From the IMG/VR virus record IMGVR_UViG_2706794662_000007: a DNA stretch of 64,000 bases; one strand, 5' to 3'. The notes beneath the pieces were generated by a model that made no database searches, was not told where the DNA came from, and was given only the letters and a program-made list of their open reading frames with translations. Numbering within the stretch: the stretch's first letter is position 1; the number at the start of each line of letters is the position of its first letter. Below, one piece after another: positions 4,633 through 55,321 of this stretch. The stretch is from a virus. Taxonomy: Duplodnaviria; Heunggongvirae; Uroviricota; Caudoviricetes. Both the position numbers and the translations under genes were made by a program.

Positions 4633-6192
4633 ATGACTGTTCGGATTGTATCTAACGCAGTAAATGCGCTTATTTCTGGCGCAGATGACAAGGTAAAGCA
4701 ACTGGTGCAGCAAATGTTGAGCTACGAAGTCGAGGCTGGCGACTGGAAGGGCACAAGCACAATGTTCAACTGGAGCAAAAACTCGTTCCCTGCTGGCTTT
4801 GCCAAGCCCGTGGCGGCTAATTTGAACAAGGCGGGCATCAAATGTGTTCATATCCGCAAAGACAAAGCCCCGGCGCTTGGTAAACCAAATCCGGCGGTTA
4901 ACCCATTCCCATACAATCCTGATTATGCGTATCAGGATCAGACTGTGGAAACACTGGTTCGAGAGGGAATGATGATTGCGCAGATCGCTACTGGTGGCGG
5001 GAAATCTAACGTTGCCTGCAAAGCAGCTGCACGTATCGGTCGAATGACATTATTTTTAACAACCCGCTCTGTTCTGATGTTTCAAATGGCCGAAAACTTC
5101 CAGAGATCCATCGACTACCGCGCCAAAAATGGCGAACCGTGGTTAAAAGACCAAAAGGTTGGAGTCATTGGCTCGGGTGAGTTCCAGGTATCACGACATA
5201 TCAACGTCGCTACAGTTCAAACTCTTGCAAGTTTCCTCGAAGAACCACCACGCGATGCAACACCAGATAAGAAAAGCTACCACCTCAAACGTCGGGAGTT
5301 GGTGAAACGCTTCCTTTCAAGTGTCTCTCTTCTTATTCTGGAAGAGGCGCATGAGTCTTCAGGCTCAAATTTCTATGACATCGCCAGATTATGTGTGAAC
5401 GCAGACTATCGTCTGGCGCTTACAGCCACGCCGTTCATGAAGGATTCGACGGAAGCCAACATGCGCCTGATGGCGGTGGCCGGGCGAATTGAAATTAAAG
5501 TCACAGAAAAGTATCTGATTGATCGAGGCATTCTGGCAAAGCCGTACTTCCTTTATCATAAAGTTGCCTACAAGCCAGACGAGGCCAGAATCAAGGCCGA
5601 ACTTGCCAACAAACACCTCAATTTTAGAGTTGGTATGAGCACCGCCTACCAAAAGGCTTATCAGTTGGGGATCGTGTATAATTTGGGACGTAACGAGGCC
5701 ATTGTGCGCGAAGCATTGCTCTATAAGCAACATTCTCTCAATTGTATGACTCTGGTTCGCCTTAAACGCCACGGGCAAATCCTGATGGAAATGATGAAAG
5801 AGTCCGGCCTTAGAGTTGACTTCATCTATGGGGAATCTAACCAGGCGACAAGGCAAGCAAAGCTGAACAGTTTAGCGTCTGGAGAAATAGATGTTTTAAT
5901 AGGCTCGACTATTCTGGATGTCGGTGTTGATGTGCCAAGCGTTGGTGCGGTCATTCTTGCTGGTGGTGGGAAAGCAGAAGTTGAAATGAGGCAGCGTGTC
6001 GGTCGTGGCTTACGAGCCAAGAAGAATCAGGCAAACGTGTGTTTTATCACTGATTTCATTGACATTAGCAACAAATACCTGTTGTCTCACTCTTATGAGC
6101 GAAAACACATCATCGACACCACACCTGGCTTTGCAGAAGGTGTATTGCCTATTGATGGCGCATTCGATTTTGGAGTTCTGAAACGAGATTAG
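4633..6192 (+). CDS. SF2 (DEAD/DEAH-type) helicase
   Basis: Walker A ATGGGKS, Walker B LILEEAHE, motif III TATP, motif VI QRVGRGLR. Confidence 0.8.
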   Translation: MTVRIVSNAVNALISGADDKVKQLVQQMLSYEVEAGDWKGTSTMFNWSKNSFPAGFAKPVAANLNKAGIKCVHIRKDKAPALGKPNPAVNPFPYNPDYAYQDQTVETLVREGMMIAQIATGGGKSNVACKAAARIGRMTLFLTTRSVLMFQMAENFQRSIDYRAKNGEPWLKDQKVGVIGSGEFQVSRHINVATVQTLASFLEEPPRDATPDKKSYHLKRRELVKRFLSSVSLLILEEAHESSGSNFYDIARLCVNADYRLALTATPFMKDSTEANMRLMAVAGRIEIKVTEKYLIDRGILAKPYFLYHKVAYKPDEARIKAELANKHLNFRVGMSTAYQKAYQLGIVYNLGRNEAIVREALLYKQHSLNCMTLVRLKRHGQILMEMMKESGLRVDFIYGESNQATRQAKLNSLASGEIDVLIGSTILDVGVDVPSVGAVILAGGGKAEVEMRQRVGRGLRAKKNQANVCFITDFIDISNKYLLSHSYERKHIIDTTPGFAEGVLPIDGAFDFGVLKRD

Positions 6193-6194
6193 TT

Positions 6195-6473
6195 ATGAGC
6201 GAAAAGAAAACAACTTATTGTCAGGTGGCATTGTCCGATAAGGCCAATGACAAACTTGGAAAGTTTCAAATGAAACTAAAAGAAAAAAACATCAAAATGT
6301 CTAAGGCTGAAGTTATCAATACCATTCTGGAGACGATGACGATGGCTGAATTTGACAAAGTTTCATCTGCCGTTGGAGTCTCTGCTAAGGCTCGTGAGAA
6401 AATCATGCGCATCTATGAGAACTCTAATATGACAAAGGAAGATTTAGAGCAAATTCTAAGCAAACTGCCGTAA
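6195..6473 (+). CDS. hypothetical protein
   Basis: 92 aa ORF 3 nt after helicase stop; followed by hairpin terminator. Confidence 0.45.
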   Translation: MSEKKTTYCQVALSDKANDKLGKFQMKLKEKNIKMSKAEVINTILETMTMAEFDKVSSAVGVSAKAREKIMRIYENSNMTKEDLEQILSKLP

Positions 6474-9579: not shown

Positions 9580-9843
9580 NNNNNNNNNNNNNNNNNNNNN
9601 NNNNNNNNNNNNNNNNNNNNNNNNNNNNNNNNNNNNNNNNNNNNNNNNNNNNNNNNNNNNNNNNNNNNNNNNNNNNNNNNNNNNNNNNNNNNNNNNNNNN
9701 NNNNNNNNNNNNNNNNNNNNNNNNNNNNNNNNNNNNNNNNNNNNNNNNNNNNNNNNNNNNNNNNNNNNNNNNNNNNNNNNNNNNNNNNNNNNNNNNNNNN
9801 NNNNNNNNNNNNNNNNNNNNNNNNNNNNNNNNNNNNNNNNNNN
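9580..9843. other. N-run (masked or unresolved sequence)
   Basis: 264 consecutive n. Confidence 1.
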
Positions 9844-10324
9844 ACACGCCATCAAGGATGTGGATGCGGTTGCTTGCGTATACATTCAGCATAAAGTTAG
9901 CGCAAAACAGTTTCCATGTATCAACGCCAGCGGTATACGTAATGTTTTTGCATTTAATTGCATTGTTGGCGATCCGCATCCCCTGCGATACTGCTTCATC
10001 GTCGGAAAATTTGAACGACGATTGAGTTTTAATCCAGACAGAAATCTGCGTAGCGAACTCAATCAGCTTGGACTGGCAGAATCGCCCGGAGCGCACCGGA
10101 AAGACGAACGTTCCGAATCCAGAATTTACCACATACGCTTTCTCAAATACCCGCGAGTAACGACGATTGCCAATGATGTCGCGTGCAATAATGCATTTTT
10201 CTTGTGCTGACAGTTCTACCGTCTCATTGTCGCGCCATGCACCAAGTACTCGTTTTTCAATGTCAGAGAACGTTACAGCGATATTGCCATGTGCGGGTGC
10301 GTTTACAGTAGCGATAAAATTCAT
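9844..10324 (-). CDS. hypothetical protein, 3' end lost in N-run
   Basis: ORF starts MNFIATVNAPAHG at 10324; motif A at 10343-10360 upstream; true stop unknown. Confidence 0.4.
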
Positions 10325-10674
10325 GATTAATTCCTTATCGTAAATAACAAATTGTTTTCTTGTTGGCGTTAATTATCGTTGTACGAATAAGGCGTCAAAG
10401 TGGAAAGTTGCGGTAGCCGGACGGGAACAGGTGGGTTTGTCGGTTGCCTGGAGGTAAGAGGTTGGTGTTTTTAGCCTGCGGGAAACAGGATGGTCATTTA
10501 AGGCCACCAGCAGTGGTGGCCTTAATAATTATCGACCGATTACGCTAAGGATCTTTTCCTCAACTGATTTGTTGTTGCGACTAAACTGCCTTGCGTATCT
10601 GATGACAGAAGAGGCGTTTTGCTTTCTGACTATCTCGGCTCTTTCCTTCAGGCGTTTCTTGAAATCGCCCATAT

Positions 10675-11049
10675 TTACCACCAGGCGCAGAAGGTCAGTC
10701 TGTTATTGTGAAAGTCGTGGTTCTTAATCAGCTCTTCCACAAGTTTTTTCAACTCCCCCACGTCATGCCAGTACCCTTCATCGTACTCCTGACTGCCGAA
10801 GAAAAAACCTTCACAGGTAGGTAAGTACTCTTCGCAGTTACTTTCGTTCATGTGCATCAAATGAGCTTTCAGAGCACAAATGTCATTCATCGTTAATTCT
10901 AAAAGCTCACAATTTTTGACTTCACCTACGTTGCGTTCCATCCACCCAAAGAGAGCATTGAACTTACGGAAGTAAGCAACCTTCTTTCTGGATGCATCGT
11001 TATTCAGATCGTTTTTTGGTTGCGTCTCAATGTAGATATCAAGTCCCAT
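10675..11049 (-). CDS. hypothetical protein
   Basis: 124 aa ORF; motif A at 11107-11124 upstream. Confidence 0.45.
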   Translation of the reverse strand: MGLDIYIETQPKNDLNNDASRKKVAYFRKFNALFGWMERNVGEVKNCELLELTMNDICALKAHLMHMNESNCEEYLPTCEGFFFGSQEYDEGYWHDVGELKKLVEELIKNHDFHNNRLTFCAWW

Positions 11050-11126
11050 GATGGTTTCCTTATCAAGTTGCTTTCAGTGAAAGCATTTTCACAAATCAGA
11101 TAAGGCAGAAAACAAATTGTTATCGG

Positions 11127-11147
11127 GCATAAGAAAATGGCGCGGTT
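11127..11147 (-). terminator. terminator hairpin
   Basis: atggcgcggtttacgcgccat followed by T-run on minus strand. Confidence 0.55.
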
Positions 11148-11167
11148 TACGCGCCATTCAAAGAGGA

Positions 11168-11575
11168 TTAAGCGAATACGCTTTCAGGGATTAAGGTGTC
11201 AGCAGGAATGCCGGAGGTAATGCGCAGACCATACTGACCAATCCAGGTAGTGTTAGTGTTCAGACTGGAAGCGAATACGGTGTTAACCATATTCATCATG
11301 GTTTCAAACACCTCTTTATTCACCTTACGGAAGTAACTTTCAATTTTCAACAACAACGGGTCCGTTGCATCAAAAATGGACTGATATTGCGCCTCATATT
11401 CCCCGCCTGATGTATCTCCTTTACGCACAATAGTACTTGCCTGAACTTCAGTTCCAGTTTCGGTGTTGTACGTAACGACGGTGATTTTAGCTACATTCTT
11501 ACCTTCGGCGCTTTCTGAAGCATAGTAGACATCAACTGTCAGGTTTTCTCGTTTAACGCTCATATCACTCTCCAT
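11168..11575 (-). CDS. hypothetical protein
   Basis: 135 aa ORF. Confidence 0.45.
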   Translation of the reverse strand: MESDMSVKRENLTVDVYYASESAEGKNVAKITVVTYNTETGTEVQASTIVRKGDTSGGEYEAQYQSIFDATDPLLLKIESYFRKVNKEVFETMMNMVNTVFASSLNTNTTWIGQYGLRITSGIPADTLIPESVFA

Positions 11576-11632
11576 AGTGTCTTGGTTATTTTTCTATTTT
11601 ATAGACATAGGTATGTACTTACAATACAAAAA

Positions 11633-11651
11633 ACCCCGTAAGGATGGCGGG
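11633..11651 (-). terminator. terminator hairpin
   Basis: ccccgtaaggatggcgggg followed by T6 on minus strand. Confidence 0.55.
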
Positions 11652-11688
11652 GCTGTCGTACTGTCGACTAATTACCACTTGCACATTA

Positions 11689-12000
11689 TCAGGCTATTGC
11701 CATCACTGATGCTCTCTGAATCTCTTGCTGGGCCACGCGGTTAACTTCCATCAAAGCCAGTTCGAGCTGATGTTCCGGCCACATTCTTTGAAATGCCATC
11801 CAGCCTTTTCCACGCTGGCGACGAACATTCATTACATAACGAGTAAAGGTGTTTTTATCGAAAGACACCGCTGTTTCACGGAACAGACGAATAGAGGTTC
11901 CATTGGCAACGATGTCCAGCAAAGTTAATTGAGCAACCAGTGCAGGCTTCTCTTTTCTCTTCTGGTCTTTGTCCAGACCAAGAACCAATGATTTTTTCAT
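11689..12000 (-). CDS. hypothetical protein
   Basis: Start set to internal ATG (MKKSL) with GGAG ribosome-binding site; motif A 13 nt upstream. Confidence 0.45.
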   Translation of the reverse strand: MKKSLVLGLDKDQKRKEKPALVAQLTLLDIVANGTSIRLFRETAVSFDKNTFTRYVMNVRRQRGKGWMAFQRMWPEHQLELALMEVNRVAQQEIQRASVMAIA

Positions 12001-12154
12001 CACAACTCCGTAAACAACTTGTTTTCTCAATGGCGTAAATAATACCAGTAAGAAAACGGCTACAAAGCATATTGATCAGGCGCATGAGCGATATGCAGGT
12101 TCTTCCCTGCGGCTACAGATGAAGTTAAGCCAGCAATGCTGGCTTTGGTTGGGC

Positions 12155-12484
12155 TTACGCGAATATCGCAAGGAAGTCCTGAACGTCCCAATGCTGGACG
12201 AGGTGAAGATAGACCTTAGAAATCACGTCATTTTCGCTATCGCATGTGAAGTAGTACTTCTGGCTGCGGTTGTATGTGTCCACACAAAATTCGCTCATAT
12301 CCATAAAGTCAGCATCTTCACCCATGTCGCAAATCATCAAAGCAGGTGCGTCATCACGAGTCATCAGCTCCAGCACCCATCTTGAATTAATCAGAGTGGA
12401 AGACCAACCTTCCAGCTCATAAAACTGGTCAAACTCTTTTTGAGTCAATTTCTTAATTTGGTTGATGTCGATATTTGCAAACAT
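12155..12484 (-). CDS. hypothetical protein
   Basis: Start set to MFANIDINQ; upstream region is a near-duplicate of that of the 11689-12000 gene. Confidence 0.45.
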   Translation of the reverse strand: MFANIDINQIKKLTQKEFDQFYELEGWSSTLINSRWVLELMTRDDAPALMICDMGEDADFMDMSEFCVDTYNRSQKYYFTCDSENDVISKVYLHLVQHWDVQDFLAIFA

Positions 12485-12622
12485 AAAGCAATCCTTAAAC
12501 ATGTTGTTTTCTGAATTACGTAAACAATACCAGTAAGAAAACGGCCACAAAGTATATCGTTACGGTGCTGCGCTGCCCCGAGGTTAATAGCGACAAAAGC
12601 CACCGTGCTGGTGGCCTCACTC

Positions 12623-12841
12623 TTAATCTTGGTCGTCCGGGAACTCGCTGTGTACCGCGCCCACCAGCTCCCGCTTTTCATCTTCACTCAGCAGGTGCCA
12701 GATATCCTTCCCTTTGGGCGATTCCCCTTCTGCCGGGACGAACGACCACAACTTGCGGTACAACTCCGGCCCCACTGCATCCAGACACTCAGCCAGGGAA
12801 TCCACGCCCCACACCTCAACCGTCACAGGCATCTTAATCAT
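12623..12841 (-). CDS. hypothetical protein
   Basis: 72 aa ORF followed by hairpin. Confidence 0.35.
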   Translation of the reverse strand: MIKMPVTVEVWGVDSLAECLDAVGPELYRKLWSFVPAEGESPKGKDIWHLLSEDEKRELVGAVHSEFPDDQD

Positions 12842-14412
12842 CTCTTCATCCTCACTTCGTTTCTATAACGTCTAAATATGCTGTTTACTTGTTGGTGTTA
12901 TTATCGCAATAAGATAAAGGCGAAAAAGGATTTTATGTCGGGAAAGCCAGGCTGGGCAGTGAATATCCGGGAACGACACGAGAGCCAGTATTTACGATAT
13001 TCTGCTCTACGCGCGCCGCGGGGCTGGTGGGTAGAATAATCCTCTCCCCGAAAACCTACTGAAATCGATTGTGACCCGCTGGCTGTCTGGCACAATTACG
13101 CTGTATCTGGCATTCAGAGGGAATCCAGCGGTAAGCAAGTCAGCCTGCACGTGAGCGCCTCTCTTCTTCCCGCACATTACAGGTGGGTAGCTGCAACTCT
13201 CTCTCTCTCGCTATACCGGTACGCCGCCGTTCCAGAACCGGCATCGAGCCTTTTCCCGAAATCCACACAGGCAACTCGACCGTTTCCCTGAAAATCCCCA
13301 GCCGTTCCCCCGAAGGCAACCCAGCCGTTTCTGTAGCTGGATGCAACCTTTTCCCTGTATGGACCGAAGGCTGACCGTAGGGGGTGTTACGGGGGATAAA
13401 ATCAGGAGTTGAATAAATACGAAAAAGGAGGCGACCCCCCTCCTTCCCTCTCCACTTATACATACCTGGCTTCTTCGCTATACATGTTGTGTTTTATCTG
13501 TCTCAACCTCTCTATAGGCGTTAATGCTCACTCCTTCCAGAATGTTCTATACGGCGACTATTTCTGTTGGTGAATTGGGTGTGTTGTTTTCTCTGTCGGT
13601 GTATGTGGTTTCGTTAGTTTTGCGGTGGTTCTTCTATGGGGGTGTTCTCGTCGTTTTGGTGATTGTTCTTCTCCGTGTATGGAGTAATGGCAGGTGGGCG
13701 ATTGCTTTCGTTATTGTGTTTGAGTTGTTTGTCTGGAGTGTGTGAAGGCTTTTGTAGTTATTCGTGTATTGGGTAATGGCGTTTCCCGTGATTGTTATGT
13801 TTCGTGTCTTTTGGGATTGAGAGAAACCTTGCGGTTACAGGCTTCGTTAGGGTTTCAGCGGTTCAGGTGTTTCTTCGCTGTTTGGGTAATGGCGTGTCGT
13901 GGGTATCGCGCGTATGAATGTTTTCGGATTGCCTGTGAAAGTTAGGTTGGTTGTCCGGTAGCCTGGGGAGAAGAGGTGGGTCTTTTCGGTAGCCTGCCAT
14001 AAAGAGGTTGGTTGTTTTGGGTAATGGCATATGTGTTATTTGGTTGTTTTGTTATGCCTGAAAATAAGTTGTTTATATGGTTGTGTAACGCAACGGGAGC
14101 GATTTTGAGCGTGTGTTTTTGTTGGTAGTGTGTTGAGTCGTCTGTGGTGAAATTTGGACGCTGTGGCGCTATCTGCTGCGTAGAATTACGGGTATAAGAA
14201 GTGATGTGTGATAACGTCAATTTTTTAGACCAAATCGGGAGAAAGCGTTGATGTTTCGTTGATCTGTTATTTAGTTGTTTTCTTATTGGTATAAACAACC
14301 ATAACCTATTGATATTTAATGATGTGATTGCTGGTATGGGAGGGTAGTAGTGGCGATCAACGGGTTCTTATAGAAAAGAATCAAATTGTGACCGCCATTA
14401 TCAACGGTTTGA

Positions 14413-14598
14413 TTAGATGAGATGGTCTAATTCATCATCTATCATGGCTTTGACGCTGGAGTCGTTCACTCCATATTTATTTATGAGCTGTTTCAGCTCT
14501 GTCGAAAACTGAAGGTAGATATCGTGAGCGTTTTTCACTGTAGGTTCAACGCCACTCATTTCAAGCGCCTTTAGTAGATATGAGTCTTCTTTAAGCAT
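14413..14598 (-). CDS. hypothetical protein
   Basis: 61 aa ORF. Confidence 0.35.
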   Translation of the reverse strand: MLKEDSYLLKALEMSGVEPTVKNAHDIYLQFSTELKQLINKYGVNDSSVKAMIDDELDHLI

Positions 14599-14634
14599 AA
14601 ATTCTCCGTTATCTAGTATGAAGCGATTGCCGGA

Positions 14635-14934
14635 TTACCATTGCCAGCACTCAAGCCCTTCAACGACCGGTGCGCCACAATCAAAATGTACAGAGTTAAA
14701 GCCTACATCAAGTACTTTCTGAATGTTCGCAATCGCACCCTCGGATATACCATATCGACGCAACTCATCTTTCCAGTCATCGTCCTGTAACCCGGCGTGG
14801 ACAATGCAACCGTACTCAATTTGTGAAACCCAATCCAGCTCATTGCTTGCGATCATGAATCGGCGAGCATCTTCCTCTGATGTATGAGATGAACTGATCA
14901 ATGCCACCTGGTAGGCTTGGGTAATGTTCAACAT
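14635..14934 (-). CDS. hypothetical protein
   Basis: 99 aa ORF; two motif A copies upstream (14947-14963, 14997-15014). Confidence 0.4.
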   Translation of the reverse strand: MLNITQAYQVALISSSHTSEEDARRFMIASNELDWVSQIEYGCIVHAGLQDDDWKDELRRYGISEGAIANIQKVLDVGFNSVHFDCGAPVVEGLECWQW

Positions 14935-15045
14935 TTCAACTACTCCAAAACAAGTTGTTTTCTTATGTGGCTTATTATCTCAATCAACAAAAGGTAGAAA
15001 ACAAATTGTTTTAGGGCTTGTGTAAATCAGGAGGGATTGTGTCTA

Positions 15046-15076
15046 TATGAAAATGCCCGGCGTGTTGCCGGGCATT
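15046..15076 (-). terminator. metG rho-independent terminator
   Basis: atgcccggcaacacgccgggcat hairpin followed by T-run on minus strand, just after metG stop. Confidence 0.6.
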
Positions 15077-15095
15077 GCGAAGAGAGGTTGTTTAA

Positions 15096-17034
15096 TTACT
15101 TAACCTGGTGGCCAGGTTTAGCACCAGCATCCGGGCTTAACAGGAAGATATCTTTCCCGCCAGGACCGGCAGCCATCACCATGCCTTCAGAGATACCGAA
15201 GCGCATTTTACGTGGTGCCAGGTTAGCCACCATAATGGTGTGACGACCAATCAGTGCCTGTGGATCTGGATAAGCGGAACGGATGCCTGAGAAGACATTA
15301 CGCTTTTCACCACCGAGATCCAGCGTCAGGCGAAGCAGTTTGTCAGAACCTTCGACAAACTCCGCGTTTTCAATCAGCGCCACACGCAGGTCAACTTTGG
15401 CGAAGTCGTCAAAGGTGATGGTTTCCTGAATCGGTTCGTCAGCCAGTGGGCCAGTTACCGGTGCAGCTGTGGCTTTCACTTCTTCTTTGGATGCTTCCAC
15501 CAGTGCTTCCACCTGTTTCATATCGATACGGTTATACAGTGCCTTGAACGGATTCACTTTATGGCCCAGAAGCGGTTGCTGGATACCATCCCAGGTCAGT
15601 TCTGTATTCAGGAATGCTTCTGCACGTTCAGTCAGTTTCGGCAGTACCGGTTTCAGGTACGTCATCAGCACGCGGAACAGGTTAATGCCCATAGAGCAAA
15701 TCGCCTGCAGATCTGCATCGCGACCTTCCTGCTTCGCCACCACCCACGGAGCCTGTTCATCGACATAGCGATTAGCCAGGTCAGCCAATGCCATGATTTC
15801 ACGGATAGCTTTACCAAATTCGCGGCTTTCCCATGCTTCGCCAATCACTTCAGCGGCATCAGTAAAGGTTTTGTACAGTTGCGGGTCAGCCAGTTCGCTT
15901 GTCAGCACGCCGTCAAAACGCTTGTTGATAAAGCCTGCATTACGGGAGGCCAGGTTAACCACTTTGTTCACGATATCGGCATTCACGCGCTGAACGAAAT
16001 CTTCCAGGTTGAGATCGATATCATCAATGCGCGAAGAGAGTTTCGCAGTGTAGTAGTAACGCAGGCTGTCAGCGTCAAAATGATTCAGCCAGGTGCTGGC
16101 TTTAATAAAGGTGCCGCGAGACTTGGACATCTTCGCGCCGTTCACCGTCACATAGCCGTGAACAAACAGGTTGGTCGGCTTGCGGAAGTTGCTGCCTTCC
16201 AGCATGGCAGGCCAGAACAGACTGTGGAAGTAAACGATATCTTTGCCGATGAAGTGGTACAGCTCGGCGGTGGAGTCTTTCTTCCAGTATTCGTCGAAGC
16301 TTACGCTGTCGCCGCGCTTGTCGCACAGATTCTTGAAAGAACCCATGTAGCCAATCGGCGCGTCCAGCCAGACGTAGAAATATTTGCCCGGCGCGTTCGN
16401 NNNNNNNNNNNNNNNNNNNNNNNNNNNNNNNNNNNNNNNNNNNNNNNNNNNNNNNNNNNNNNNNNNNNNNNNNNNNNNNNNNNNNNNNNNNNNNNNNNNN
16501 NNNNNNNNNNNNNNNNNNNNNNNNNNNNNNNNNNNNNNNNNNNNNNNNNNNNNNNNNNNNNNNNNNNNNNNNNNNNNNNNNNNNNNNNNNNNNNNNNNNN
16601 NNNNNNNNNNNNNNNNNNNNNNNNNNNNNNNNNNNNNNNNNNNNNNNNNNNNNNNNNNNNNNNNNNNNNNNNNNNNNNNNNNNNNNNNNNNNNNNNNNNN
16701 NNNNNNNNNNNNNNNNNNNNNNNNNNNNCTCTTCGCTGTGCGTCGAGTGATAGTTGTCATAGCTGATGTTAAAGCCTGCGAAATCAGTCTGATGTTCCTG
16801 ACTCATTTCGCCAATCATCTGTTCCGGTGTGATACCAAGCTGCTGTGCTTTCAGCATGATTGGCGTACCGTGGGCATCGTCGGCACAGATGAAATTAACC
16901 TCGTGGCCGCGCATTCGCTGGTAACGAACCCAGACATCAGCCTGGATGTGCTCCAGCATATGGCCGAGGTGGATTGAGCCGTTAGCGTACGGCAGCGCGC
17001 ACGTCACCAGAATTTTCTTCGCGACTTGGGTCAT
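15096..17034 (-). CDS. metG: methionyl-tRNA synthetase (interrupted by N-run 16400-16728)
   Basis: Start [29 protein letters not shown] (HIGH-type motif) and C-terminus ...[24 protein letters not shown] match E. coli MetG as I recall it; the two flanking ORF fragments are in different frames because of the N-run. Confidence 0.95.
16400..16728. other. N-run inside metG
   Basis: 329 n. Confidence 1.
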
Positions 17035-17191
17035 AGTAGGCATTACTTCTTTGTAGTGAAAAGGGGCTTGATAGTAACAAAATGGCCTTATGTCTGCCAT
17101 GTGATAACAGCATTTCTCATAAATGATTAAATGTCGTAGCTGGAGTACACTACAAGGCGACAATTGCGCAAATTAAAATAAAGGAGACGGG

Positions 17192-18292
17192 ATGAGCGAG
17201 TCCAAATCGCCGGATGCCCTGAGAGCAATGGTAGCCGGTACGCTGGCTAATTTTCAGCACCCAACCCTGAAACACAACTTGACTACGCTTAAAGCGTTAC
17301 ACCATGTTGCGTTGATGGATGACACACTGCATGTCGAACTAATCATGCCTTTCGTGTGGAATAAGCCTTTTGAAGACCTGAAAGAGCAATGTAGTGGTGA
17401 TCTGCTCCGTATCACTGGCGCAAAGGCTATTGACTGGAAGCTGTCGTACAACATTGCCACGCTTAAGCGCGTCAAAAACCAACCAGGCATTAATGGCGTT
17501 AAGAACATTATCGCCGTCAGCTCAGGCAAGGGCGGCGTGGGTAAATCCTCCACAGCAGTAAACTTGGCACTGGCTTTGGCTGCTGAAGGTGCGAAAGTTG
17601 GTATTTTGGATGCCGATATCTATGGTCCATCAATTCCAACCATGCTGGGCGCGGAAAACCAACGTCCAACCTCACCGGACGGTACTCACATGGCACCTAT
17701 CATGTCTCATGGCCTGGCAACCAACTCTATTGGTTATCTGGTCACCGATGACAATGCAATGGTGTGGCGTGGACCGATGGCGAGCAAGGCGCTGATGCAG
17801 ATGTTGCAGGAAACACTGTGGCCTGATCTGGACTATCTCGTTCTCGATATGCCACCGGGCACTGGTGATATTCAATTGACGCTGGCGCAGAACATTCCTG
17901 TAACTGGTGCGGTTGTGGTAACTACGCCGCAAGACATCGCGCTGATCGATGCGAAGAAAGGCATTGTGATGTTCGAAAAAGTCGAAGTGCCGGTACTGGG
18001 TATCGTTGAAAACATGAGTGTGCATATTTGCAGTAACTGCGGTCATCACGAGCCAATTTTTGGCACCGGTGGAGCACAGAAACTGGCCGAGAAATACAAC
18101 ACGCAGTTGTTAGGCCAAATGCCACTTCATATCTCTCTTCGTGAAGATCTGGATAACGGAACACCAACCGTTATTAGTCGTCCAGATAGCGAATTTACGG
18201 CTATTTATCGTGACCTCGCAGATCGCGTTGCTGCCCAAATGTATTGGCAAGGTGAAGTAATACCTGGCGAAATCGCATTCCGCGCAGTGTGA
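17192..18292 (+). CDS. apbC: Mrp/ApbC Fe-S cluster carrier ATPase
   Basis: 366 aa; deviant Walker A AVSSGKGGVGKSST and CxxC (CSNCGH); divergent from metG as in the E. coli chromosome. Confidence 0.95.
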   Translation: MSESKSPDALRAMVAGTLANFQHPTLKHNLTTLKALHHVALMDDTLHVELIMPFVWNKPFEDLKEQCSGDLLRITGAKAIDWKLSYNIATLKRVKNQPGINGVKNIIAVSSGKGGVGKSSTAVNLALALAAEGAKVGILDADIYGPSIPTMLGAENQRPTSPDGTHMAPIMSHGLATNSIGYLVTDDNAMVWRGPMASKALMQMLQETLWPDLDYLVLDMPPGTGDIQLTLAQNIPVTGAVVVTTPQDIALIDAKKGIVMFEKVEVPVLGIVENMSVHICSNCGHHEPIFGTGGAQKLAEKYNTQLLGQMPLHISLREDLDNGTPTVISRPDSEFTAIYRDLADRVAAQMYWQGEVIPGEIAFRAV

Positions 18293-18294
18293 TA

Positions 18295-18319
18295 AAAAGG
18301 CGGTGCATTGCACCGCCTA
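18295..18319 (-). terminator. hairpin terminator (T-run on minus strand)
   Basis: ggcggtgcaatgcaccgcc followed by ttttt on minus strand, between apbC stop and UmuD'-like stop. Confidence 0.5.
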
Positions 18320-18329
18320 ATCAGTTCTC

Positions 18330-18719
18330 CTACATCACAGGACAATCATCAAACTCGCCACTTCTTGCGTCGTTGATAATGTGAGTGATCACACCAAACA
18401 CGGCATTGCTGCCCGTGCATCCATCGTCATCCTTTGGCAATGCTTCCTTCTTACCGGTTCTTAAATCCTCCAGATGCTGACGTGGAGACTTCCGGTATCT
18501 TTTTACGCGATATTCCCCATCCAGAGCGCATACAAGCAGAGAACCATCAACCGGGGTAAGTGAGGAATCAACCACCAGCAATGCACCCTGTAATATTCCC
18601 TCACGATGATGACTATCAGCTGCTCTCATGAAGTAGGTCGCTGAAGGATGTCTAATTATCTGCTGATCAAGAGAAATACGGCTCTCAGCATAATCCGCCG
18701 CAGGAGAAGGGAAGCCCAT
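18330..18719 (-). CDS. UmuD'-like S24 peptidase family protein
   Basis: GFPSPAADYAE...HPSATYF...DS...VKRYRK...VFGVITHIIN aligns with the UmuD C-terminal domain and lacks the N-terminal arm, like processed UmuD'; motif A upstream at 18839-18856. Confidence 0.7.
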   Translation of the reverse strand: MGFPSPAADYAESRISLDQQIIRHPSATYFMRAADSHHREGILQGALLVVDSSLTPVDGSLLVCALDGEYRVKRYRKSPRQHLEDLRTGKKEALPKDDDGCTGSNAVFGVITHIINDARSGEFDDCPVM

Positions 18720-18904
18720 AGCGTTTTGCCCTCAATACTGTTCATTTACACAGTATACATGAAAGAAGCTCACTCAGTGCAACTGATCGGTACATAGCAC
18801 CAGACAAAGGAACGTTATTTTCTCGAACAAGAAAAGGTAGAAAACAAATTGTTTAAGGCCACAACTAGTGGCCTTAATGGAGAAGGGATGCTTATTGGCT
18901 ATGG

Positions 18905-19423
18905 CTAAAAATCAAANNNNNNNNNNNNNNNNNNNNNNNNNNNNNNNNNNNNNNNNNNNNNNNNNNNNNNNNNNNNNNNNNNNNNNNNNNNNNNNNNNNN
19001 NNNNNNNNNNNNNNNNNNNNNNNNNNNNNNNNNNNNNNNNNNNNNNNNNNNNNNNNNNNNNNNNNNNNNNNNNNNNNNNNNNNNNNNNNNNNNNNNNNNN
19101 NNNNNNNNNNNNNNNNNNNNNNNNNNNNNNNNNNNNNNNNNNNNNNNNNNNNNNNNNNNNNNNNNNNNNTTTAAAGGAAGATAGGTTCCCCATAGTAGCT
19201 GTCTGCCGTGCGCTCGTGTGAAATACCGGGCCATCTTCGGATTGCTATGCTGCTTAGGAGCGCCTGGTCTGTATGTCTGATACCCGGCCAACATCCCATC
19301 AAACCTGTATAGAGGGAATGTAACAACTCCTTCGCTTTCATCGATCCACTGTCTATATGGATGCACATCATAGCGGTAGTTACGAGTTAGCAAATGAGCT
19401 TCCAGCTTTCCAAATTTAGTCAT
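18905..19423 (-). CDS. hypothetical protein (interrupted by N-run)
   Basis: Start set to MTKFGKLEAH with GAGGGA ribosome-binding site; C-terminal part and frame uncertain. Confidence 0.35.
   Translation of the reverse strand: MTKFGKLEAHLLTRNYRYDVHPYRQWIDESEGVVTFPLYRFDGMLAGYQTYRPGAPKQHSNPKMARYFTRAHGRQLLWGTYLPLXXXXXXXXXXXXXXXXXXXXXXXXXXXXXXXXXXXXXXXXXXXXXXXXXXXXXXXXXXXXXXXXXXXXXXXXXXXXXXXXXXXXXFDF
18917..19169. other. N-run
   Basis: 253 n. Confidence 1.
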
Positions 19424-21475: not shown

Positions 21476-21748
21476 TTAACCCGCAGTGCNNNNNNNNNNN
21501 NNNNNNNNNNNNNNNNNNNNNNNNNNNNNNNNNNNNNNNNNNNNNNNNNNNNNNNNNNNNNNNNNNNNNNNNNNNNNNNNNNNNNNNNNNNNNNNNNNNN
21601 NNNNNNNNNNNNNNNNNNNNNNNNNNNNNNNNNNNNNNNNNNNNNNNNNNNNNNNNNNNNNNNNNNNNNNNNNNNNNNNNNNNNNNNNNNNNNNNNNNNN
21701 NNNNNNNNNNNNNNNNNNNNNNNNNNNNNNNNNNNNNNNAGTTGCCAT
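21476..21748 (-). CDS. hypothetical protein (mostly masked by N-run)
   Basis: ATG at 21748 preceded by conserved junction GGAGAGTGATATG; body is n. Confidence 0.3.
   Translation of the reverse strand: MATXXXXXXXXXXXXXXXXXXXXXXXXXXXXXXXXXXXXXXXXXXXXXXXXXXXXXXXXXXXXXXXXXXXXXXXXXXXXXXXXXXXXTAG
21490..21739. other. N-run
   Basis: 250 n. Confidence 1.
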
Positions 21749-25187: not shown

Positions 25188-26892
25188 TCATTTAACGCGT
25201 TTGAAAACGTATACGCTGACTGTGATCCCTGTGTCTTCAAACTCGTTGGTAAACGACTTCCCTCTGGCATAAACGTAATTATCCATCGTCATCCAGTCCA
25301 GTATTGGCGCNNNNNNNNNNNNNNNNNNNNNNNNNNNNNNNNNNNNNNNNNNNNNNNNNNNNNNNNNNNNNNNNNNNNNNNNNNNNNNNNNNNNNNNNNN
25401 NNNNNNNNNNNNNNNNNNNNNNNNNNNNNNNNNNNNNNNNNNNNNNNNNNNNNNNNNNNNNNNNNNNNNNNNNNNNNNNNNNNNNNNNNNNNNNNNNNNN
25501 NNNNNNNNNNNNNNNNNNNNNNNNNNNNNNNNNNNNNNNNNNNNNNNNNNNNNNNNNNNNNNNNNCCAGATCGGCGTTAATATAGGCCAGAAGATCCCCA
25601 CGTCCGGCTTGAGGCTCCAACAGCTTCTCACCAGGCTTCAATTCAGTGGCTCTGGCAACGTACTCAGCAATCAAGCGTGGGGTAGGGTAGAACTGGTGTG
25701 ATTTTGTATCCGGTATTAAACCGGTAGCCACAATCGTATTTAGCGTATGGCCGATCTCATACGGGAACTGCCAGTGCTTTTTCTCCTGCACGCCGCCAAT
25801 GAAGCTCAGTGTGCGCTCAAGCTCTTCCACCTGCGACTTCTGGAGAGCTGAATCAGAGAAGTACCATACGCCTTTGTCTTTGCTCAATCGCCCGTCACGA
25901 AGCGCAGTGCGAACCGGCACGGAGATCGTCTTCTGGATTAACCCGAACTGCTTTGGTGCCCGTGTTTTTGGCGCAGTTCGGCATGGCGCGGGGATTGCAG
26001 CAGGCATACTGTAAGCCAGCACCTCATTCAACTTCCAGGCCACGTCAGGATGTATTTCAAAGTGAACGTTGCCGTTCTTGAACATCTTCACGCGCATCAG
26101 ATTTCCATCGACGTTCATCCAGTCACCGGTCTGGCAGTCGTTTGCCCGATACGCAGCTGATAGCACCTCAGCAGTGCGGTTGATGGTAATAAATTCTTTG
26201 TGCGCGAAGAAATGAAGCAAGACACGCAGATCGTCGATGTAGTCCTCTTTGCGATAGTTCACGCTAACGCTGTCACGCCAGAAATCAGAAATGCAGTCAG
26301 CGATTATCAGACGCTCGCTGAAACCGTTTGTCTTATTTGTCTTGTGCGCAGGACTCAGCGCCTTAAACAAGCCATACACGCGCTCAGAGAGATATTTGTG
26401 CCTGTCATTCAGCAAATTAAGCATCGTTGGTATGACCGTTTCTGCTTTGAACTCCGGTACACCAACGAACTCTTTAACCTTCATCTGATAGCCGGTTCTG
26501 TCAGTTTTGATGACTTCCTGCTTGCCCTCGATAAATAGCTCACGCCACTCGTCGCGACGGGAAGCTGGCATGATCAGCAGAACGTTAGTCATATCCGTAA
26601 CCTTCCTCCAGTACTCGGCCCAAATATTCTGTTTCACCCATTCCAGATCGACGTTATCCAGCCAGACTCGATTCAAACGTGAGCGATCTTCATCTGGTCG
26701 GTGGTTTAGTCGAAGCAGGCGATTAATCATGTTGTGGCGTTCATCGCCATAAACGAAGTCGTGTACCTGATACATGAAGGAGATCTCTTTCTCGCACTCG
26801 GCCACAATTTCGTGGATGACGTTCATTTCCTGTCGATAGTCGATAGCAGTGTTTGAGCTGGCATCGCCCATGATGGAAAGGGCTGTATTCAT
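25188..26892 (-). CDS. putative N6-adenine DNA methyltransferase with large N-terminal extension (C-terminal part masked)
   Basis: FYPTPRLIAEYV followed by EPQAGRGDLLAYI (motif X then motif I, gamma-class order) just before the N-run; the catalytic (D/N)PPY region would lie in the masked part. Confidence 0.45.
25311..25565. other. N-run
   Basis: 255 n. Confidence 1.
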
Positions 26893-29535: not shown

Positions 29536-30051
29536 TTAGTCACAGCATGATCCTGAGTAACTGGATGAACTTGAGGTATCGCATCCACCGTCATCCCATC
29601 CAGAGTGACAGGTCGCTCTACTGGAGTGGTGGTAATTGTCGTCGACGGAGGTGTGGTGATGGATGAATCCGGCATCAAAAGGCTCTGACCGGCTGGAACG
29701 GCTACCGTCGCCAGTGAAACTATAATGAGAACGTAGGCCATTGGTTTCAGCCTCTTTCTTTGAAAATTTTCCATTCGAACTGTCCTTGTTGTTTTTCTCC
29801 TTCACTAAAGGCCGTGCATTTTTCGCTTCGCGTGAAGAACCAGAGGCAACAATCGCCCACACGTTCGCAACAACTGACGCTTGATTATCTAAACGTTCAT
29901 TCAGCAACCGAACGGTAGTCTCTAGTTCATCAAGGCGTGACATAACACGACCGCTAAATAATTCGGCCAAAATTTGACGTAAAGAACGAGGACGTTTAGT
30001 TACAGAAGTGAAATAGGTTTGACGTGCCATGTGGACTCCATCCAGTGTCAT
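29536..30051 (-). CDS. hypothetical protein (3' end ambiguous; overlapping alternative frame 29523-29774)
   Basis: N-terminal part MARQTYFTSV... is plausible; C-terminal low-complexity tail is doubtful. Confidence 0.3.
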   Translation of the reverse strand: MTLDGVHMARQTYFTSVTKRPRSLRQILAELFSGRVMSRLDELETTVRLLNERLDNQASVVANVWAIVASGSSREAKNARPLVKEKNNKDSSNGKFSKKEAETNGLRSHYSFTGDGSRSSRSEPFDAGFIHHHTSVDDNYHHSSRATCHSGWDDGGCDTSSSSSYSGSCCD

Positions 30052-30175
30052 AAAGAGTTGCGGCTGGCAATCGCCAGCCGCCTTTCTCGTTCCATCCTGG
30101 AACTGTGTCTTACCGACACATTGTCATCCTGACGCCGATAAGATACATGATTTATAATGATAGGTAAACACTTAC

Positions 30176-30769
30176 TTACTGTTTGTTATAAACAAAACCA
30201 ATATCTTTCTTGTGAGGCATATCTGCTGCTGAAAAAGCTGCGATCTTCGCGAGTCGATCACATATTTCATTTTCACGATGCCCGGCGTGACCTTTAACCC
30301 ACTTCCAGCGAACATTATGTCGACTTGCGGCCTCATCCAGACGCTTCCACAGATCAACATTCTTTACCGGTTTTTTGTCAGAAGTCATCCATCCATTGCG
30401 TTTCCACCATTTCATCCACTGTGTCATGCCGTTTTTCAGATACTGGCTATCAGAGTGCAAAATAACGTTGCATGGATATTTCAAACGCTCCAGCCCGATA
30501 AGTGCCCCCATCATCTCCATGCGGTTATTGGTGGTGCTATGAAAACCATCTGAGAACTCGCGTTCCTCGCCACGATACTGGAGAACGATACCGTAACCGC
30601 CCGGGCCACCCGGATTTTTAAGGCAAGAGCCATCACTAAAGATTTTCACGGTTTTAAGCTGGGGATTGAACTCTACGACAGGCGTTGTGGGATTGGTGCG
30701 GGGAGAATTTTTGTTTTTGTCTTTTTTGCGAGTTTTTGCTTGCGGTCGGGCTGGTGTCTTCGTTGTCAT
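30176..30769 (-). CDS. rnhA: ribonuclease HI
   Basis: [19 protein letters not shown]...HSDSQY...[16 protein letters not shown] matches the RNase H fold catalytic pattern; start set to MTTKTPAR. Confidence 0.85.
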
Positions 30770-31350
30770 ATAAACTCCTGAATCAAGCGCCGCGCCGATT
30801 TTTCCTCGCGCGTGCGCACACGCGTGCGTGTTAATAATTATTAAAATAAACAAATTACTTCCCAGAACAGGTTTTTATAAACCTGAACTGAACGAACGAA
30901 GTGAGTGAAGTTCACCTCGAACGAAGTGAGAGGTTGTCTTTTCAGGTAATACTCTCCCAGGGAGGTGAGTATAAAATTCCTCACCAACCTGGTCGTTTCA
31001 TAACCTGAAAAGCTATGGTCTAAGTCTACTGCCAGCTTAGACTTGGGAAGTTATGGATGACAGCACCCCAGAACCGAGATCTTCCCACACTTTATGAAGG
31101 GGAGTACTGGATTCAACCTCTCGAAACACCCCAGACTCGACAATCATAAAGTGACCCTTGTCTCCGCTCACTTTGGTTCCCCCTTCCCCGACACCTAAAC
31201 GGCACCGGTTCTACGCTGGTAGTGAGCTTTTTTAAACCTGACGCCAGTGACGCTTACCCCCACCCATCAGGTCGAGTCTCCAGTCTACGACTGGAAACTA
31301 TCAGATCTTAGCACTTACAATTCATCTTATGAATAGTTTGTACTTATCTA

Positions 31351-31581
31351 TCATTTCGATTGATTATTTTCTCGACCATGTAGTTGAACATTCAAGGCAA
31401 ACACCTCGTTGATCAACTCACCTAAAAGCTGTTCAACAAGTTCGCGATGCTCCCCAAGATGCAAGCACTTAATTGCCCACTCGTACAAGTTGAAAGCCTG
31501 CTCACGATCTTTCATCATTTCACGAGCCTGGGCCAGAAAATCGCTGTCTACGAGCGCAACGACATTAGTCGGGTATGACAT
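31351..31581 (-). CDS. hypothetical protein
   Basis: Start MSYPTNVV with AAGGA ribosome-binding site. Confidence 0.4.
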   Translation of the reverse strand: MSYPTNVVALVDSDFLAQAREMMKDREQAFNLYEWAIKCLHLGEHRELVEQLLGELINEVFALNVQLHGRENNQSK

Positions 31582-31689
31582 GTTGGTTTCCTTAAAGTGG
31601 TTCATAAAATCGATTTTAAAGCGTCTGGGAAGGGGGTCTAGTGGATTCTGTAGTGATGTTCAGGTCTGGAGTCTCTGATACAAAACAGC

Positions 31690-31746
31690 CTGCTTCCGTA
31701 TATTAATAATTAATATGTAGTTATTTATATATATACAGAAGCAGGC
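31690..31746. repeat. long nested inverted repeat element, copy 2
   Basis: cctgcttccgtatat...atatatacagaagcagg, same architecture as copy 1. Confidence 0.7.
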
Positions 31747-31768
31747 TAATTACAGACGCCAGAACAAA

Positions 31769-32362
31769 CTAAGCAGCCTTCTTTGATGGTCTTTTTTTCC
31801 TGATCACATTCGCAGGATCATACCCTCCCAGACTTTTCATGACGTCCAAAGGGATCTTGCTTATAGAGTGCCCAGCGTCCTGACAGAATCCTCGAAAAAC
31901 AACGAGCATACTGCCACCGGGGTTGATGTTTACTTCTACCTGACCCAAATTGACGTCAGGCTCGACAAACGCTACGCGGCCACCAGACAGAATAATCGTC
32001 TCATTCGCATACTCTGTTGCACGCTCATACCACTTTGTATCGAGGGATTGAGGAATTAGCATCACTGTAGTAACTCCGCGAGCCTGCTCACGTATAGCAG
32101 CATCAATCCAGGGGGAGATTTTGGAGTAGGGTGGATTGAGGAAGGCAATTGTACCTGGCTGTCCCCATTCAGATTTCAAAGCATCACGCTCAATGCCTAT
32201 GAAATTAGGCAGCTTTGCGTTGTCCTTGTTGCAGGCAACGTCAACATCAAATGTCACTCCAAGATAACGTTGAATGGCAGAAAACAGCCAATCAGGTGTT
32301 CTCCAGAGGTCACGAAGAGAGTTGTCGCGCTTTCGCTGTTTGATTTTTTCGGCTGCAATCAT
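31769..32362 (-). CDS. phage-type N6-adenine DNA methyltransferase (Dam-like)
   Basis: TPDWLF and NPPY motifs; about 197 aa typical of the phage Dam family. Confidence 0.75.
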   Translation of the reverse strand: MIAAEKIKQRKRDNSLRDLWRTPDWLFSAIQRYLGVTFDVDVACNKDNAKLPNFIGIERDALKSEWGQPGTIAFLNPPYSKISPWIDAAIREQARGVTTVMLIPQSLDTKWYERATEYANETIILSGGRVAFVEPDVNLGQVEVNINPGGSMLVVFRGFCQDAGHSISKIPLDVMKSLGGYDPANVIRKKRPSKKAA

Positions 32363-32544
32363 CTTCTTTCTCGATAGGTAAGTAAATACCTATTTTTGCA
32401 TTTGATTTTATGTATGGCAATCAAATAAAACGCGCCAGAAATGCGAACAAGAAGCTCTCTGGCGCGTTTTTTTGGTGCTGGGTATGGGTTATCTTACCCA
32501 GCACTATAAAGCTCTCTATGGGCTTTATTTTCAGTAGGGGAACG

Positions 32545-33354
32545 TCATCCAATAGTGTACTCCGCGACAAACTTCTTAACGATCGGTGATTCTTCGTTCA
32601 ATGTTAGATTTCCACCGTCTCTAACGGCAATTCCTGTAGCTGGAAATACAGCCATCATTTGCCCAGCCTGAGTTGACGCAGTGTTAAGCGGATACGGTTT
32701 TTCTGGATTGCTCATTAAAGCAATCTTAATACTATTACTTGTAGCCTTCTTTTCTGTAAGAAGGTGTCTCATGGAAATTACCGTGTAAACACTAATATCT
32801 GGACCTCCGCTAAACCAATTAAGAAGGTTTAATATCTTATCCTTCGCTTTGACAGGCGCGTTTTCGTAAGCGTCTAAGAAAATATCTTTTTCTAAGCCTG
32901 CTTTATTGAAAAACGAATCATCTTTATCACTTAAAGTAAAACTAGGACCTCTTGCAGCACGAGTTTTTTTATTTGTATTGCTATCATTTGACTGTTGAAC
33001 TTTTAATTCATCATTAACCTCAACACAATCTTCAACCTCAATGATCCCCAACTGTTCTGGCTCATTTTCGGCAGCTTCACCACTTTCAGCGTTAATTACG
33101 TTTATAGGCTCATGCGCTAACTCCAACTCATTTAAAGCAGAGCTGAAATCACCTGCTTTTTCTTCATTGAACAGTTCTTCGGCAACATCATCAGAACTCA
33201 TGGCTACGCCAGCATCGAGGCCGAGAAGCAGATCGTCAATATCATCAGTATTTTCAACCTGTGCAGCTTTTTTTACTGGTTCATCAAGTGATTGCAACAT
33301 GGCTGTCAGCTCATCCAGATCATCATTTGTCATTACATTTTCAACCGAACTCAT
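32545..33354 (-). CDS. hypothetical protein with highly acidic N-terminal half
   Basis: 269 aa; D/E-rich N-terminus. Confidence 0.5.
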   Translation of the reverse strand: MSSVENVMTNDDLDELTAMLQSLDEPVKKAAQVENTDDIDDLLLGLDAGVAMSSDDVAEELFNEEKAGDFSSALNELELAHEPINVINAESGEAAENEPEQLGIIEVEDCVEVNDELKVQQSNDSNTNKKTRAARGPSFTLSDKDDSFFNKAGLEKDIFLDAYENAPVKAKDKILNLLNWFSGGPDISVYTVISMRHLLTEKKATSNSIKIALMSNPEKPYPLNTASTQAGQMMAVFPATGIAVRDGGNLTLNEESPIVKKFVAEYTIG

Positions 33355-54230: not shown

Positions 54231-55321
54231 TTACTCTTCTACTGACTCGGTGGGGTTGTCTTTTGCTCTTCGGTCGTCGATTGCCTGCAAAGCCGCAATG
54301 ATTTCAGCCAGTGGCTTCTCCCGATACATCTCGACGATCTGCGATTTGGTGTATTTCTTGTCACCAATTTCAACTCGCCCGCTGGCGTTCTTTGGCAGGT
54401 ATCCTTCTTCCAGCATGTACTCGACGAGCGATTCGATAACGTCGAGGCCACGAGTAGGATCGAAGTAGAATTTCCAGGTGCATTTGCCATACGGTGGTGC
54501 AACTTTGTTTTTGATGCATTCTGCGCCTACGTCCTGGCCGATCTTCTCTTTACCATCCTTCATCACCGATGCACCAAGACGGATACGTACAGAAGCGTAG
54601 AACTTCGGTGAATCTCCACCTGGAGACGTAGTAGGGTCGCCAAACATTACACCGATTTTTGTGCGAACCTGATTCAAGAAGATGATGCAGGCGTTGTATT
54701 TGCGTGCCCACAAAGCCAGAGTAGGGAAGTTCGCACTTGTCGCACGAGCCAGTGCCGTATTGTCGTTCATGTTTAGCTGATCTTTGTCTTTGGCAGTGCC
54801 TTCAGCCATCTTTTCGAACTTCTCGGCTTTGGAGTTCGGAACCATAGACGCAAGTGAGTCAGCCACGATACAGATAGGTGCTGATTCAGGAATAAGCTCT
54901 TCATCACGTACCAATTTAAGAATTGTGCCGATCAACTCTACAGAGTCTTCGAAGGTATCAGGCTGCTTGTATACCCACTGACCGTCATCCTCATCTGCAT
55001 TCAAACCATTGGCTACAGCCAGGCCAACGTCAAAACTGTTCTCATGATCGAGGANNNNNNNNNNNNNNNNNNNNNNNNNNNNNNNNNNNNNNNNNNNNNN
55101 NNNNNNNNNNNNNNNNNNNNNNNNNNNNNNNNNNNNNNNNNNNNNNNNNNNNNNNNNNNNNNNNNNNNNNNNNNNNNNNNNNNNNNNNNNNNNNNNNNNN
55201 NNNNNNNNNNNNNNNNNNNNNNNNNNNNNNNNNNNNNNNNNNNNNNNNNNNNNNNNNNNNNNNNNNNNNNNNNNNNNNNNNNNNNNNNNNNNNNNNNNNN
55301 NNNNNNNNNNNNTTTTGCCAT
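54231..55321 (-). CDS. RecA-family recombinase (UvsX/RecA-like), interrupted by N-run 55055-55312
   Basis: C-terminal part ...IIFLNQVRTKIGVMFGDPTTSPGGDSPKFYASVRIRLG matches the RecA core (loop L2 region); N-terminal ATG at 55321; Walker motifs presumably masked. Confidence 0.8.
55055..55312. other. N-run
   Basis: 258 n. Confidence 1.

Follow-up and report, generated by a model that had tools for sequence, protein, structure and literature searches.

Methionyl-tRNA synthetase (MetRS) genes, metG, have been described as auxiliary genes of phage-plasmids, elements of which pWPMR2 of Shigella sonnei is an example. pWPMR2 was placed in clade K of Nair et al., bioRxiv 2025, and most members of the conserved clade of pWPMR2-like elements come from S. 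sonnei, others from Escherichia coli CC131, CC23 and CC73 (bioRxiv 10.1101/2025.09.12.675607). Phage-plasmid metG was linked to antimicrobial survival in S. sonnei by Tam et al. 2024 (medRxiv, doi 10.1101/2024.10.27.24316207), as that work is quoted in PMC12452169. Passages of PMC12452169 and of bioRxiv 10.1101/2025.09.12.675607 further state that expression of the extra metG, especially of the pWPMR2 variant, gives rise to an antibiotic-surviving sub-population predisposed to cephalosporin resistance. That alleles of the chromosomal metG can determine tolerance and persistence is well established (PMC11004401). Another phage-plasmid, pLF82/Cyrano, forms virions, is induced by ciprofloxacin and is present at 5.5 copies per cell (PMC9928086). 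Here we analysed a block of two divergent genes, metG and apbC, in a 64,000-nucleotide stretch of Caudoviricetes DNA (IMG/VR record IMGVR_UViG_2706794662_000007; "the window"). The features of the block, with positions in the window, are as follows.

15046-18293: divergent metG/apbC block, lying between backbone units of an SSU5-supergroup phage-plasmid (open reading frames and profile matches).
15045-15076, minus strand: intrinsic terminator of metG, with a hairpin at 15052-15076 (10-bp GC-rich stem, then UUUUCAU).
15096-17034, minus strand: metG, methionine--tRNA ligase, in two visible pieces (NCBIfam MetRS equivalog NF001100 / TIGR00398).
17035-17191: divergent metG/apbC intergenic (promoter) region of 157 bp, from alignment.
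17192-18292, plus strand: apbC (mrp), P-loop iron-sulfur cluster carrier ATPase of 366 amino acids (NCBIfam ApbC equivalog NF008669).

Our analysis makes it very probable that the block is a real accessory module that has resided on the element for a long time and is maintained for its function, combining an old capture, purifying selection on apbC, conversion of metG and a survival phenotype of the extra metG. An additional metG on a phage-plasmid is already published, and RefSeq plasmids already annotate both genes, so little about the pair is new; the modest additions made here concern how long ago it was captured, how apbC is selected and the mosaic that conversion would have left in metG.

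A preliminary description of the window had placed divergent metG and apbC genes inside a phage-plasmid backbone, and open reading frames and NCBIfam profiles indeed identified both genes, within an SSU5-like backbone. ApbC matched NF008669 over residues 2-366 with 759 bits (cutoff 348), and its motifs are intact: the deviant Walker A GKGGVGKS at amino acids 112-119 (nt 17525-17548) and the cluster-ligand CXXC motif, CSNC, at amino acids 280-283 (nt 18029-18040). The two visible pieces of metG matched positions 3-101 (173 bits) and 245-676 (574.5 bits) of NF001100 (676 positions; cutoff 587 bits), the gene being N-masked between them. The unmasked sequence holds the MetRS signatures HLGH (amino acids 22-25), KMSKS (amino acids 333-337; nt 16121-16135) and ETIT (amino acids 569-572). 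The mask conceals about amino acids 103-244, including the zinc knuckles (CPKC...CEVC), which are present at amino acids 146-149 and 159-162 in the MetG of CP054387.1; there metG, 100% identical over the unmasked parts, encodes an intact 677-amino-acid MetRS.

Seven stretches of the window are N-masked (9580-9843, 16400-16728, 18917-19169, 21490-21739, 25311-25565, 44324-44586 and 55055-55312). The one in metG, 16400-16728, is not length-preserving: judged from relatives that are 100% identical elsewhere, its 329 N stand for 424 real bases, and window coordinates to the right of 16728 run 95 nt short of the real molecule. Because of this replacement, a 554-amino-acid open reading frame and an apparent frameshift in metG are artefacts. 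A truncated metG, read as that frame plus a second one across the apparent frame break, was rejected, as identical records have the intact gene. More generally, the metG mask yields spurious ends of open reading frames, spurious frame shifts and, in composition profiles, dips of low GC.

We found that homology to the mrp-metG locus of E. coli K-12 ends within a few bases of both stop codons, with none of the chromosomal flanks. The nucleotide identity of apbC is 82-83% to any Escherichia and ~80-82% to Citrobacter. Phage-plasmid alleles of apbC cluster tightly, with 1-7% divergence inside their clade as against 17-19% from all Escherichia species; among the Escherichia species themselves the divergence is at most 11%. 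The donor search consisted of one ApbC scan of GTDB species genomes, and none of the best 80 loci, which were compared, was more than 83.3% identical to phage-plasmid apbC; for this reason no donor could be named. In the intergenic region, the metG-proximal ~60 nt are conserved across all enterics, and the rest has the long Citrobacter/Salmonella form, including a ~25-nt segment missing from Escherichia chromosomes; it aligned over only 47 nt with Escherichia, versus 137 nt at 77% with Citrobacter. The pair had been called E. coli-type, which is right for metG (mosaic, ~94-95% identical to K-12 overall) and wrong for apbC and the intergenic region. The GC content at third codon positions (GC3) of apbC is 0.51 as against 0.61-0.76 in chromosomes, the backbone GC being 45.6%; the lowered value fits a long residence on an AT-richer replicon. 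The metG and apbC of CP170191.1 (labelled Enterobacter hormaechei B56) are identical to K-12 at every site, with zero nonsynonymous and synonymous divergence (dN = dS = 0); this record is probably mislabelled or contaminated.

A terminator belonging to metG had been proposed, and the hairpin was found (-19.1 kcal/mol, z = -5.57), although it is specific to phage-plasmids and unlike the chromosomal terminators of E. coli, E. albertii, Citrobacter, Salmonella, Enterobacter and Klebsiella. The Salmonella phage-plasmid CP053410.1 has a homologous terminator, its stem altered in a compensatory way (CCCGG/CCGGG versus CCCAG/CTGGG). This plasmid belongs to the SSU5 group but is only distantly related (its flanks are 65-80% identical to the window), and it has the block at the same backbone position; its left-border region is homologous to that of the window, and the alignment of the two runs continuously over the border. 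Since terminator, left border and backbone position are shared, we favour one old insertion. The metG and apbC of CP053410.1 are themselves Salmonella-like (dS ~0.13 to S. diarizonae, ~95% nucleotide identity to S. enterica). A plausible history would thus start with one old capture from the chromosome of an enterobacterium whose intergenic region was of the Citrobacter/Salmonella type; the captured DNA would have been trimmed to the two stop codons, and its base composition would have drifted toward that of the AT-richer backbone.

Both genes are maintained. Full open reading frames were present in 8/8 phage-plasmid alleles examined. Among seven of the alleles, apbC reached a dS of up to 0.34 with 0-4 amino-acid changes (dN/dS 0-0.018), and the dN/dS of metG among phage-plasmid alleles was 0.009-0.076. 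apbC is under very strong purifying selection on phage-plasmids: a dN/dS of 0-0.02 at such synonymous divergence indicates sustained selection on the element. The ApbC protein is ~95% identical to that of E. coli and its N-terminus is 3 amino acids shorter than in chromosomal ApbC. Four or five of its residues are unseen in all 81 chromosomal ApbC (S58K, A59P, H303N and the N-terminal change); a neofunctionalised ApbC was rejected, so few private residues giving no sign of a new function. Old residence, selection on apbC as strong as that on metG, and overwriting by host sequence (see below) suggest that both genes have long been of use to the element itself, and not just in the clinical setting.

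The metG gene has a different pattern. Its nucleotide identity to Escherichia is 93-95%, and the divergence is unevenly distributed: window-type metG differs from K-12 at 2.5% of positions in nt 1-1224 and at 8.5% in nt 1225-2034 (Fisher p = 1e-9), and a run of 344 nt is identical to K-12. The same 5'/3' contrast is roughly even between Escherichia species (p = 0.03-0.6), K-12 versus S. flexneri being uneven (p = 0.003). The 3' part, nt 1225-2034, is roughly 8-9% from every Escherichia species. GC3 of the K-12-like part is 0.667 (0.664 in K-12), and that of the remaining part is 0.515 (0.567). The phage-plasmid metG alleles, which were compared with a panel of reference chromosomes, form no clade and interleave with chromosomal alleles; the 3' part of pF404-2 metG, for example, is 4.2% from E. 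ruysiae versus 6.3% from the window allele. On these comparisons, metG appears to be a mosaic repeatedly overwritten by host chromosomal metG. Patches would have been replaced through homologous recombination with the metG of whatever host chromosome the element encountered. Such recombination may have recurred wherever divergence allowed, in metG within Escherichia and in the whole block within Salmonella, and would no longer be possible for apbC at ~18% divergence. "Highly variable" metG alleles may then come from recombination with host chromosomes and not from point mutation alone.

A further step, which we regard as possible but rather doubtful, is that the exchange between phage-plasmid and chromosome runs both ways, the element being a mobile reservoir that receives and donates metG tracts, with apbC an independently selected functional partner and not a mere passenger. 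In that case, MetRS variants linked to tolerance could enter chromosomes or be exchanged among lineages, from ~5 copies per cell and with horizontal spread, and apbC, too diverged to recombine and with a dN/dS of ~0.01, might, for example, provide phage or host enzymes with Fe-S clusters when the element is induced.

What the block would do for the cell can be outlined from its organization. We observed a divergent 157-bp region with a conserved metG leader and a putative promoter, and terminator hairpins at both ends. The block is a self-contained cassette: the 157 bp would serve the two full-length genes as a promoter region of their own, with transcription in opposite directions, and between two backbone transcription units the cassette is insulated by the dedicated metG terminator at the left and a hairpin shared with the neighbouring gene humD at the right. 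A scan of the 157 bp for sigma-70 sites gave no strong or convincing promoter. Aminoacylation by the phage-plasmid MetRS is predicted from its ~99% identity to E. coli MetRS and its dN/dS of 0.01-0.08; tRNA genes, sought in the window as a companion tRNA-Met, were not found there. Because there are several plasmid copies per cell, the dosage of both genes would be raised, and the multicopy plasmid would provide additional MetRS and ApbC, as well as a slightly variant MetRS, on top of the chromosomal copies. In LF82 lysogens, CYRAN_99, the apbC homologue, is transcribed 9-fold above the local prophage background (PMC9928086). The preliminary description had supposed that a second metG might affect antibiotic tolerance, in agreement with Tam et al. 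2024 as quoted in PMC12452169. A mobile extra copy of an essential translation gene is an unusual cargo, and on the strength of those quoted statements the block could serve as a surveillance marker for epidemic drug-resistant S. sonnei that survives antibiotics long enough to evolve resistance.

Several observations weigh against this reading. The right junction of CP053410.1 keeps ~25 nt of Salmonella-chromosome-like sequence downstream of apbC, which a single capture fits less neatly. The K-12-identical tract of metG lies mostly under the mask and was read from the relatives that are 100% identical elsewhere; the unmasked metG alone keeps the contrast, at ~2.4% versus 8.5% from K-12. The survival phenotype rests on second-hand summaries, and the analysis gives no route from a near-wild-type extra MetRS to lower growth or raised survival. 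Finally, metG is not among the genes of Cyrano expressed in lysogeny (PMC9928086); its absence from that list may reflect cross-mapping with the chromosomal copy.

The Salmonella-like remnant in CP053410.1 would be explained if Escherichia and Salmonella phage-plasmid lineages had independently captured the block at the same hotspot, each from its own host, with no need for an ancient capture or for conversion. Both block genes of CP053410.1 are closest to Salmonella, and the site is a hotspot that has different genes in SSU5, in pZ1323HEC0016-2 and in a plasmid of E. albertii. We nevertheless consider independent captures improbable. The two lineages have a common left junction, continuous alignment and a non-chromosomal hairpin with a compensatory change; the apbC and intergenic region of the Escherichia clade did not come from Escherichia; and the mosaic of metG requires recombination anyway.

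Still less probable is a recent capture from the current Escherichia/Shigella host, with the block a neutral hitch-hiker without function for the element. Such an origin would account for the part of metG that is nearly identical to K-12 (2 differences in nt 409-816) and for a MetG ~99% identical to the host enzyme, but not for an apbC and an intergenic region that are not of Escherichia type. The loss of flanking chromosomal DNA, the shift of GC3 toward the backbone, the sustained selection seen in the dN/dS of apbC, and the near fixation of the block in its clade likewise speak against it.

Mobile second copies of aminoacyl-tRNA synthetase genes are commonly resistance genes, and the phage-plasmid metG could in principle be a drug- or toxin-resistant substitute that bypasses an inhibitor of host MetRS, as do mupA (IleRS) or the second MetRS of pneumococcus. 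No MetRS inhibitor is known to be in clinical use against Enterobacteriaceae. The window-type MetG does have three private substitutions, G134C (in the masked part), A410T and D565E; however, just 8/677 residues differ from K-12 MetRS, most phage-plasmid MetG alleles lack the private changes, and free overwriting by host sequence would destroy a resistance determinant. A mupA/ileS2-like resistant synthetase was rejected, as the strong divergence from the housekeeping copy was not found, and the resistance explanation as a whole is highly improbable. Only four residues separate D565E (window 15437-15435), a change of the window-type, pWPMR2-like allele, from the start of ETIT 569-572, which may be coincidence; deletion of ETIT in MetG is a classic high-tolerance metG allele (PMC11004401).

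That the block is genuine is borne out by its distribution. An alignment of the window with CP054387.1 passed unbroken over both junctions (99.3% identity over 9844-16399 and 100% over 16729-18916), and the block is 100% identical to both CP054387.1 and the S. sonnei plasmid LR213459.1, the latter being also 100% identical to window 30000-33000. With identical junctions, the metG-apbC block is held by ~200 closed plasmids of ~110 kb from Escherichia and Shigella in PLSDB. Four phage genome records contain it: CMS-2020a (two records), Cyrano (= pLF82) and PhiR41_1. A 5.5-kb query including the flanks matched ~110 kb plasmids at 96-99% in 69 complete E. coli genomes. Chromosomal copies exist too: 5426/5426 E. 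coli genomes gave a match, with 5509 places on chromosomes. The proposal that the block is captured cargo is thus upheld by its junctions in closed plasmids, phage records and complete genomes alike, and the alternative raised with it, a chimeric contig, is refuted, without need of reads, because the same junctions recur in many independently closed records. That a chromosomal metG-mrp segment was misjoined into a plasmid contig, an idea invited by housekeeping genes present on every E. coli chromosome and by N runs inside the window, has a negligible probability, since those closed plasmids and phage records come from unrelated projects, the block is just 82-95% identical to any E. coli chromosome and cannot be host chromosomal reads, its terminator and intergenic region are non-chromosomal, and the N run is a mask and not a scaffold gap.

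By sequence similarity, the window is an SSU5-supergroup phage-plasmid of the Escherichia/Shigella clade (pWPMR2 / pSLy3 group; p09EL50, pLF82/Cyrano). Its left flank is 71.5% identical to phage SSU5 over 66% of the flank, the window is 90-100% identical to CP054387.1 over 38 kb, and the closed relatives of the 64-kb window are plasmids of 106-115 kb. A backbone segment found 686 PLSDB plasmids, from Klebsiella, Escherichia, Enterobacter, Salmonella and Citrobacter among others. Identity to the window reaches 95% or more in only 176 of these, which come essentially from Escherichia and Shigella; their number agrees with that of the PLSDB records holding the block at 95% or more, 187. In ~505 records of other clades (Klebsiella, Enterobacter, Salmonella, Citrobacter), the block was found in one Salmonella plasmid only. 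The block is essentially fixed in its clade. The remaining "plasmid" matches to it, of 230 kb to 5.4 Mb, look like pieces of chromosome.

The block is bordered by the following features.

14948-14960 and 14999-15011: motif A pair of the left border, AAACAAGTTGTTT and AAACAAATTGTTT respectively (motif scan).
18298-18318: hairpin between the convergent apbC and humD at the right border (9-bp GC-rich stem; -17.5 and -18.6 kcal/mol).
18330-18719, minus strand: humD, a UmuD'-like S24 peptidase gene, backbone or accessory (NF051876, 219 bits; 91% to P1 HumD).
18736-18854: upstream region of humD, with a LexA-box-like TACTGTTCATTTACACAGTA at 18736-18755 and motif A at 18842-18854.

Both borders are much as the preliminary description had them, with copies of motif A at the left and, at the right, a UmuD'-like gene with motif A upstream. 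The palindrome AAACAANTTGTTT (motif A) had 15 matches in the window versus 0.49 expected, a number reached in 0/100 shuffles. The sites span window positions 992-53037 across the backbone and are often paired near gene starts (992/1017, 14948/14999); motif A probably serves as operator for a repressor that the element itself encodes. The left pair brackets the putative promoter of a leftward backbone unit, whose first gene is a 99-amino-acid open reading frame (14635-14934, minus strand). At the right, the U-run on the minus strand identifies the 18298-18318 hairpin as the humD terminator; with the A-run on the plus strand, transcription of apbC may end there as well. In pZ1323HEC0016-2, similarity to the window falls sharply in the 100-nt bin that holds the apbC stop codon. 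The TACTGTTCATTTACACAGTA palindrome is 16 nt upstream of the humD start codon and motif A is ~90 nt farther upstream, an arrangement that suggests dual control of humD, by SOS and by the element's own regulator.

Different genes occupy this site in other elements. At the equivalent site (extracted locus 14991-16402), SSU5 has SSU5_103, a ydfZ-like ("selenium delivery") gene and an LprI-family lysozyme-inhibitor gene. In pZ1323HEC0016-2 (NZ_CP148383.1, extracted locus 5101-6344), der, for the ribosome-biogenesis GTPase EngA, and not humD, is annotated immediately to the right of apbC; it would be a second translation-related housekeeping gene as phage-plasmid cargo. E. albertii p3RM15113 (CP043251.1, 62 kb; extracted locus 5034-6343) keeps the block and has polysaccharide deacetylase and GNAT genes at its right; this plasmid may be a deleted phage-plasmid derivative with the block retained. 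Since these three carry different genes there, the site is a general cargo hotspot of the supergroup.

Compared with known systems, the MetRS genes of other phages (Acinetobacter phage MD-2021a, Pseudomonas phage Y5, Microcystis phage MaAM05 and jumbo phages) are likewise virus-encoded, and their products are 24-66% identical to the window MetRS. Several "phage" records bearing MetRS are short unannotated fragments and may be host DNA. The chromosomal mrp(apbC)-metG locus of Enterobacteriaceae has the same divergent order, the same proteins and the conserved metG-proximal leader; in contrast to it, the phage-plasmid copy has its own terminator, a long non-Escherichia intergenic region, a shorter ApbC N-terminus and lower GC3. 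SSU5 and pHCM2, the type members of the supergroup, have a homologous backbone, in which the same DUF1380-gene unit borders the site, but do not carry metG-apbC. In p09EL50 (E. coli O104:H4 2009EL-2050) and pLF82/Cyrano, the block is at the same site with 97-99% identity, and RefSeq annotates metG and apbC; their metG alleles, however, differ from that of the window, in p09EL50 mainly in nt 103-918, and their MetG proteins are without G134C, A410T and D565E. The closest system is pWPMR2, which as an SSU5-group phage-plasmid with auxiliary metG agrees with the window in element type and in metG cargo. apbC is unmentioned in the two papers used here that cite Tam et al., with 0 matches in PMC12452169. 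The window and pWPMR2 are most likely the same element.

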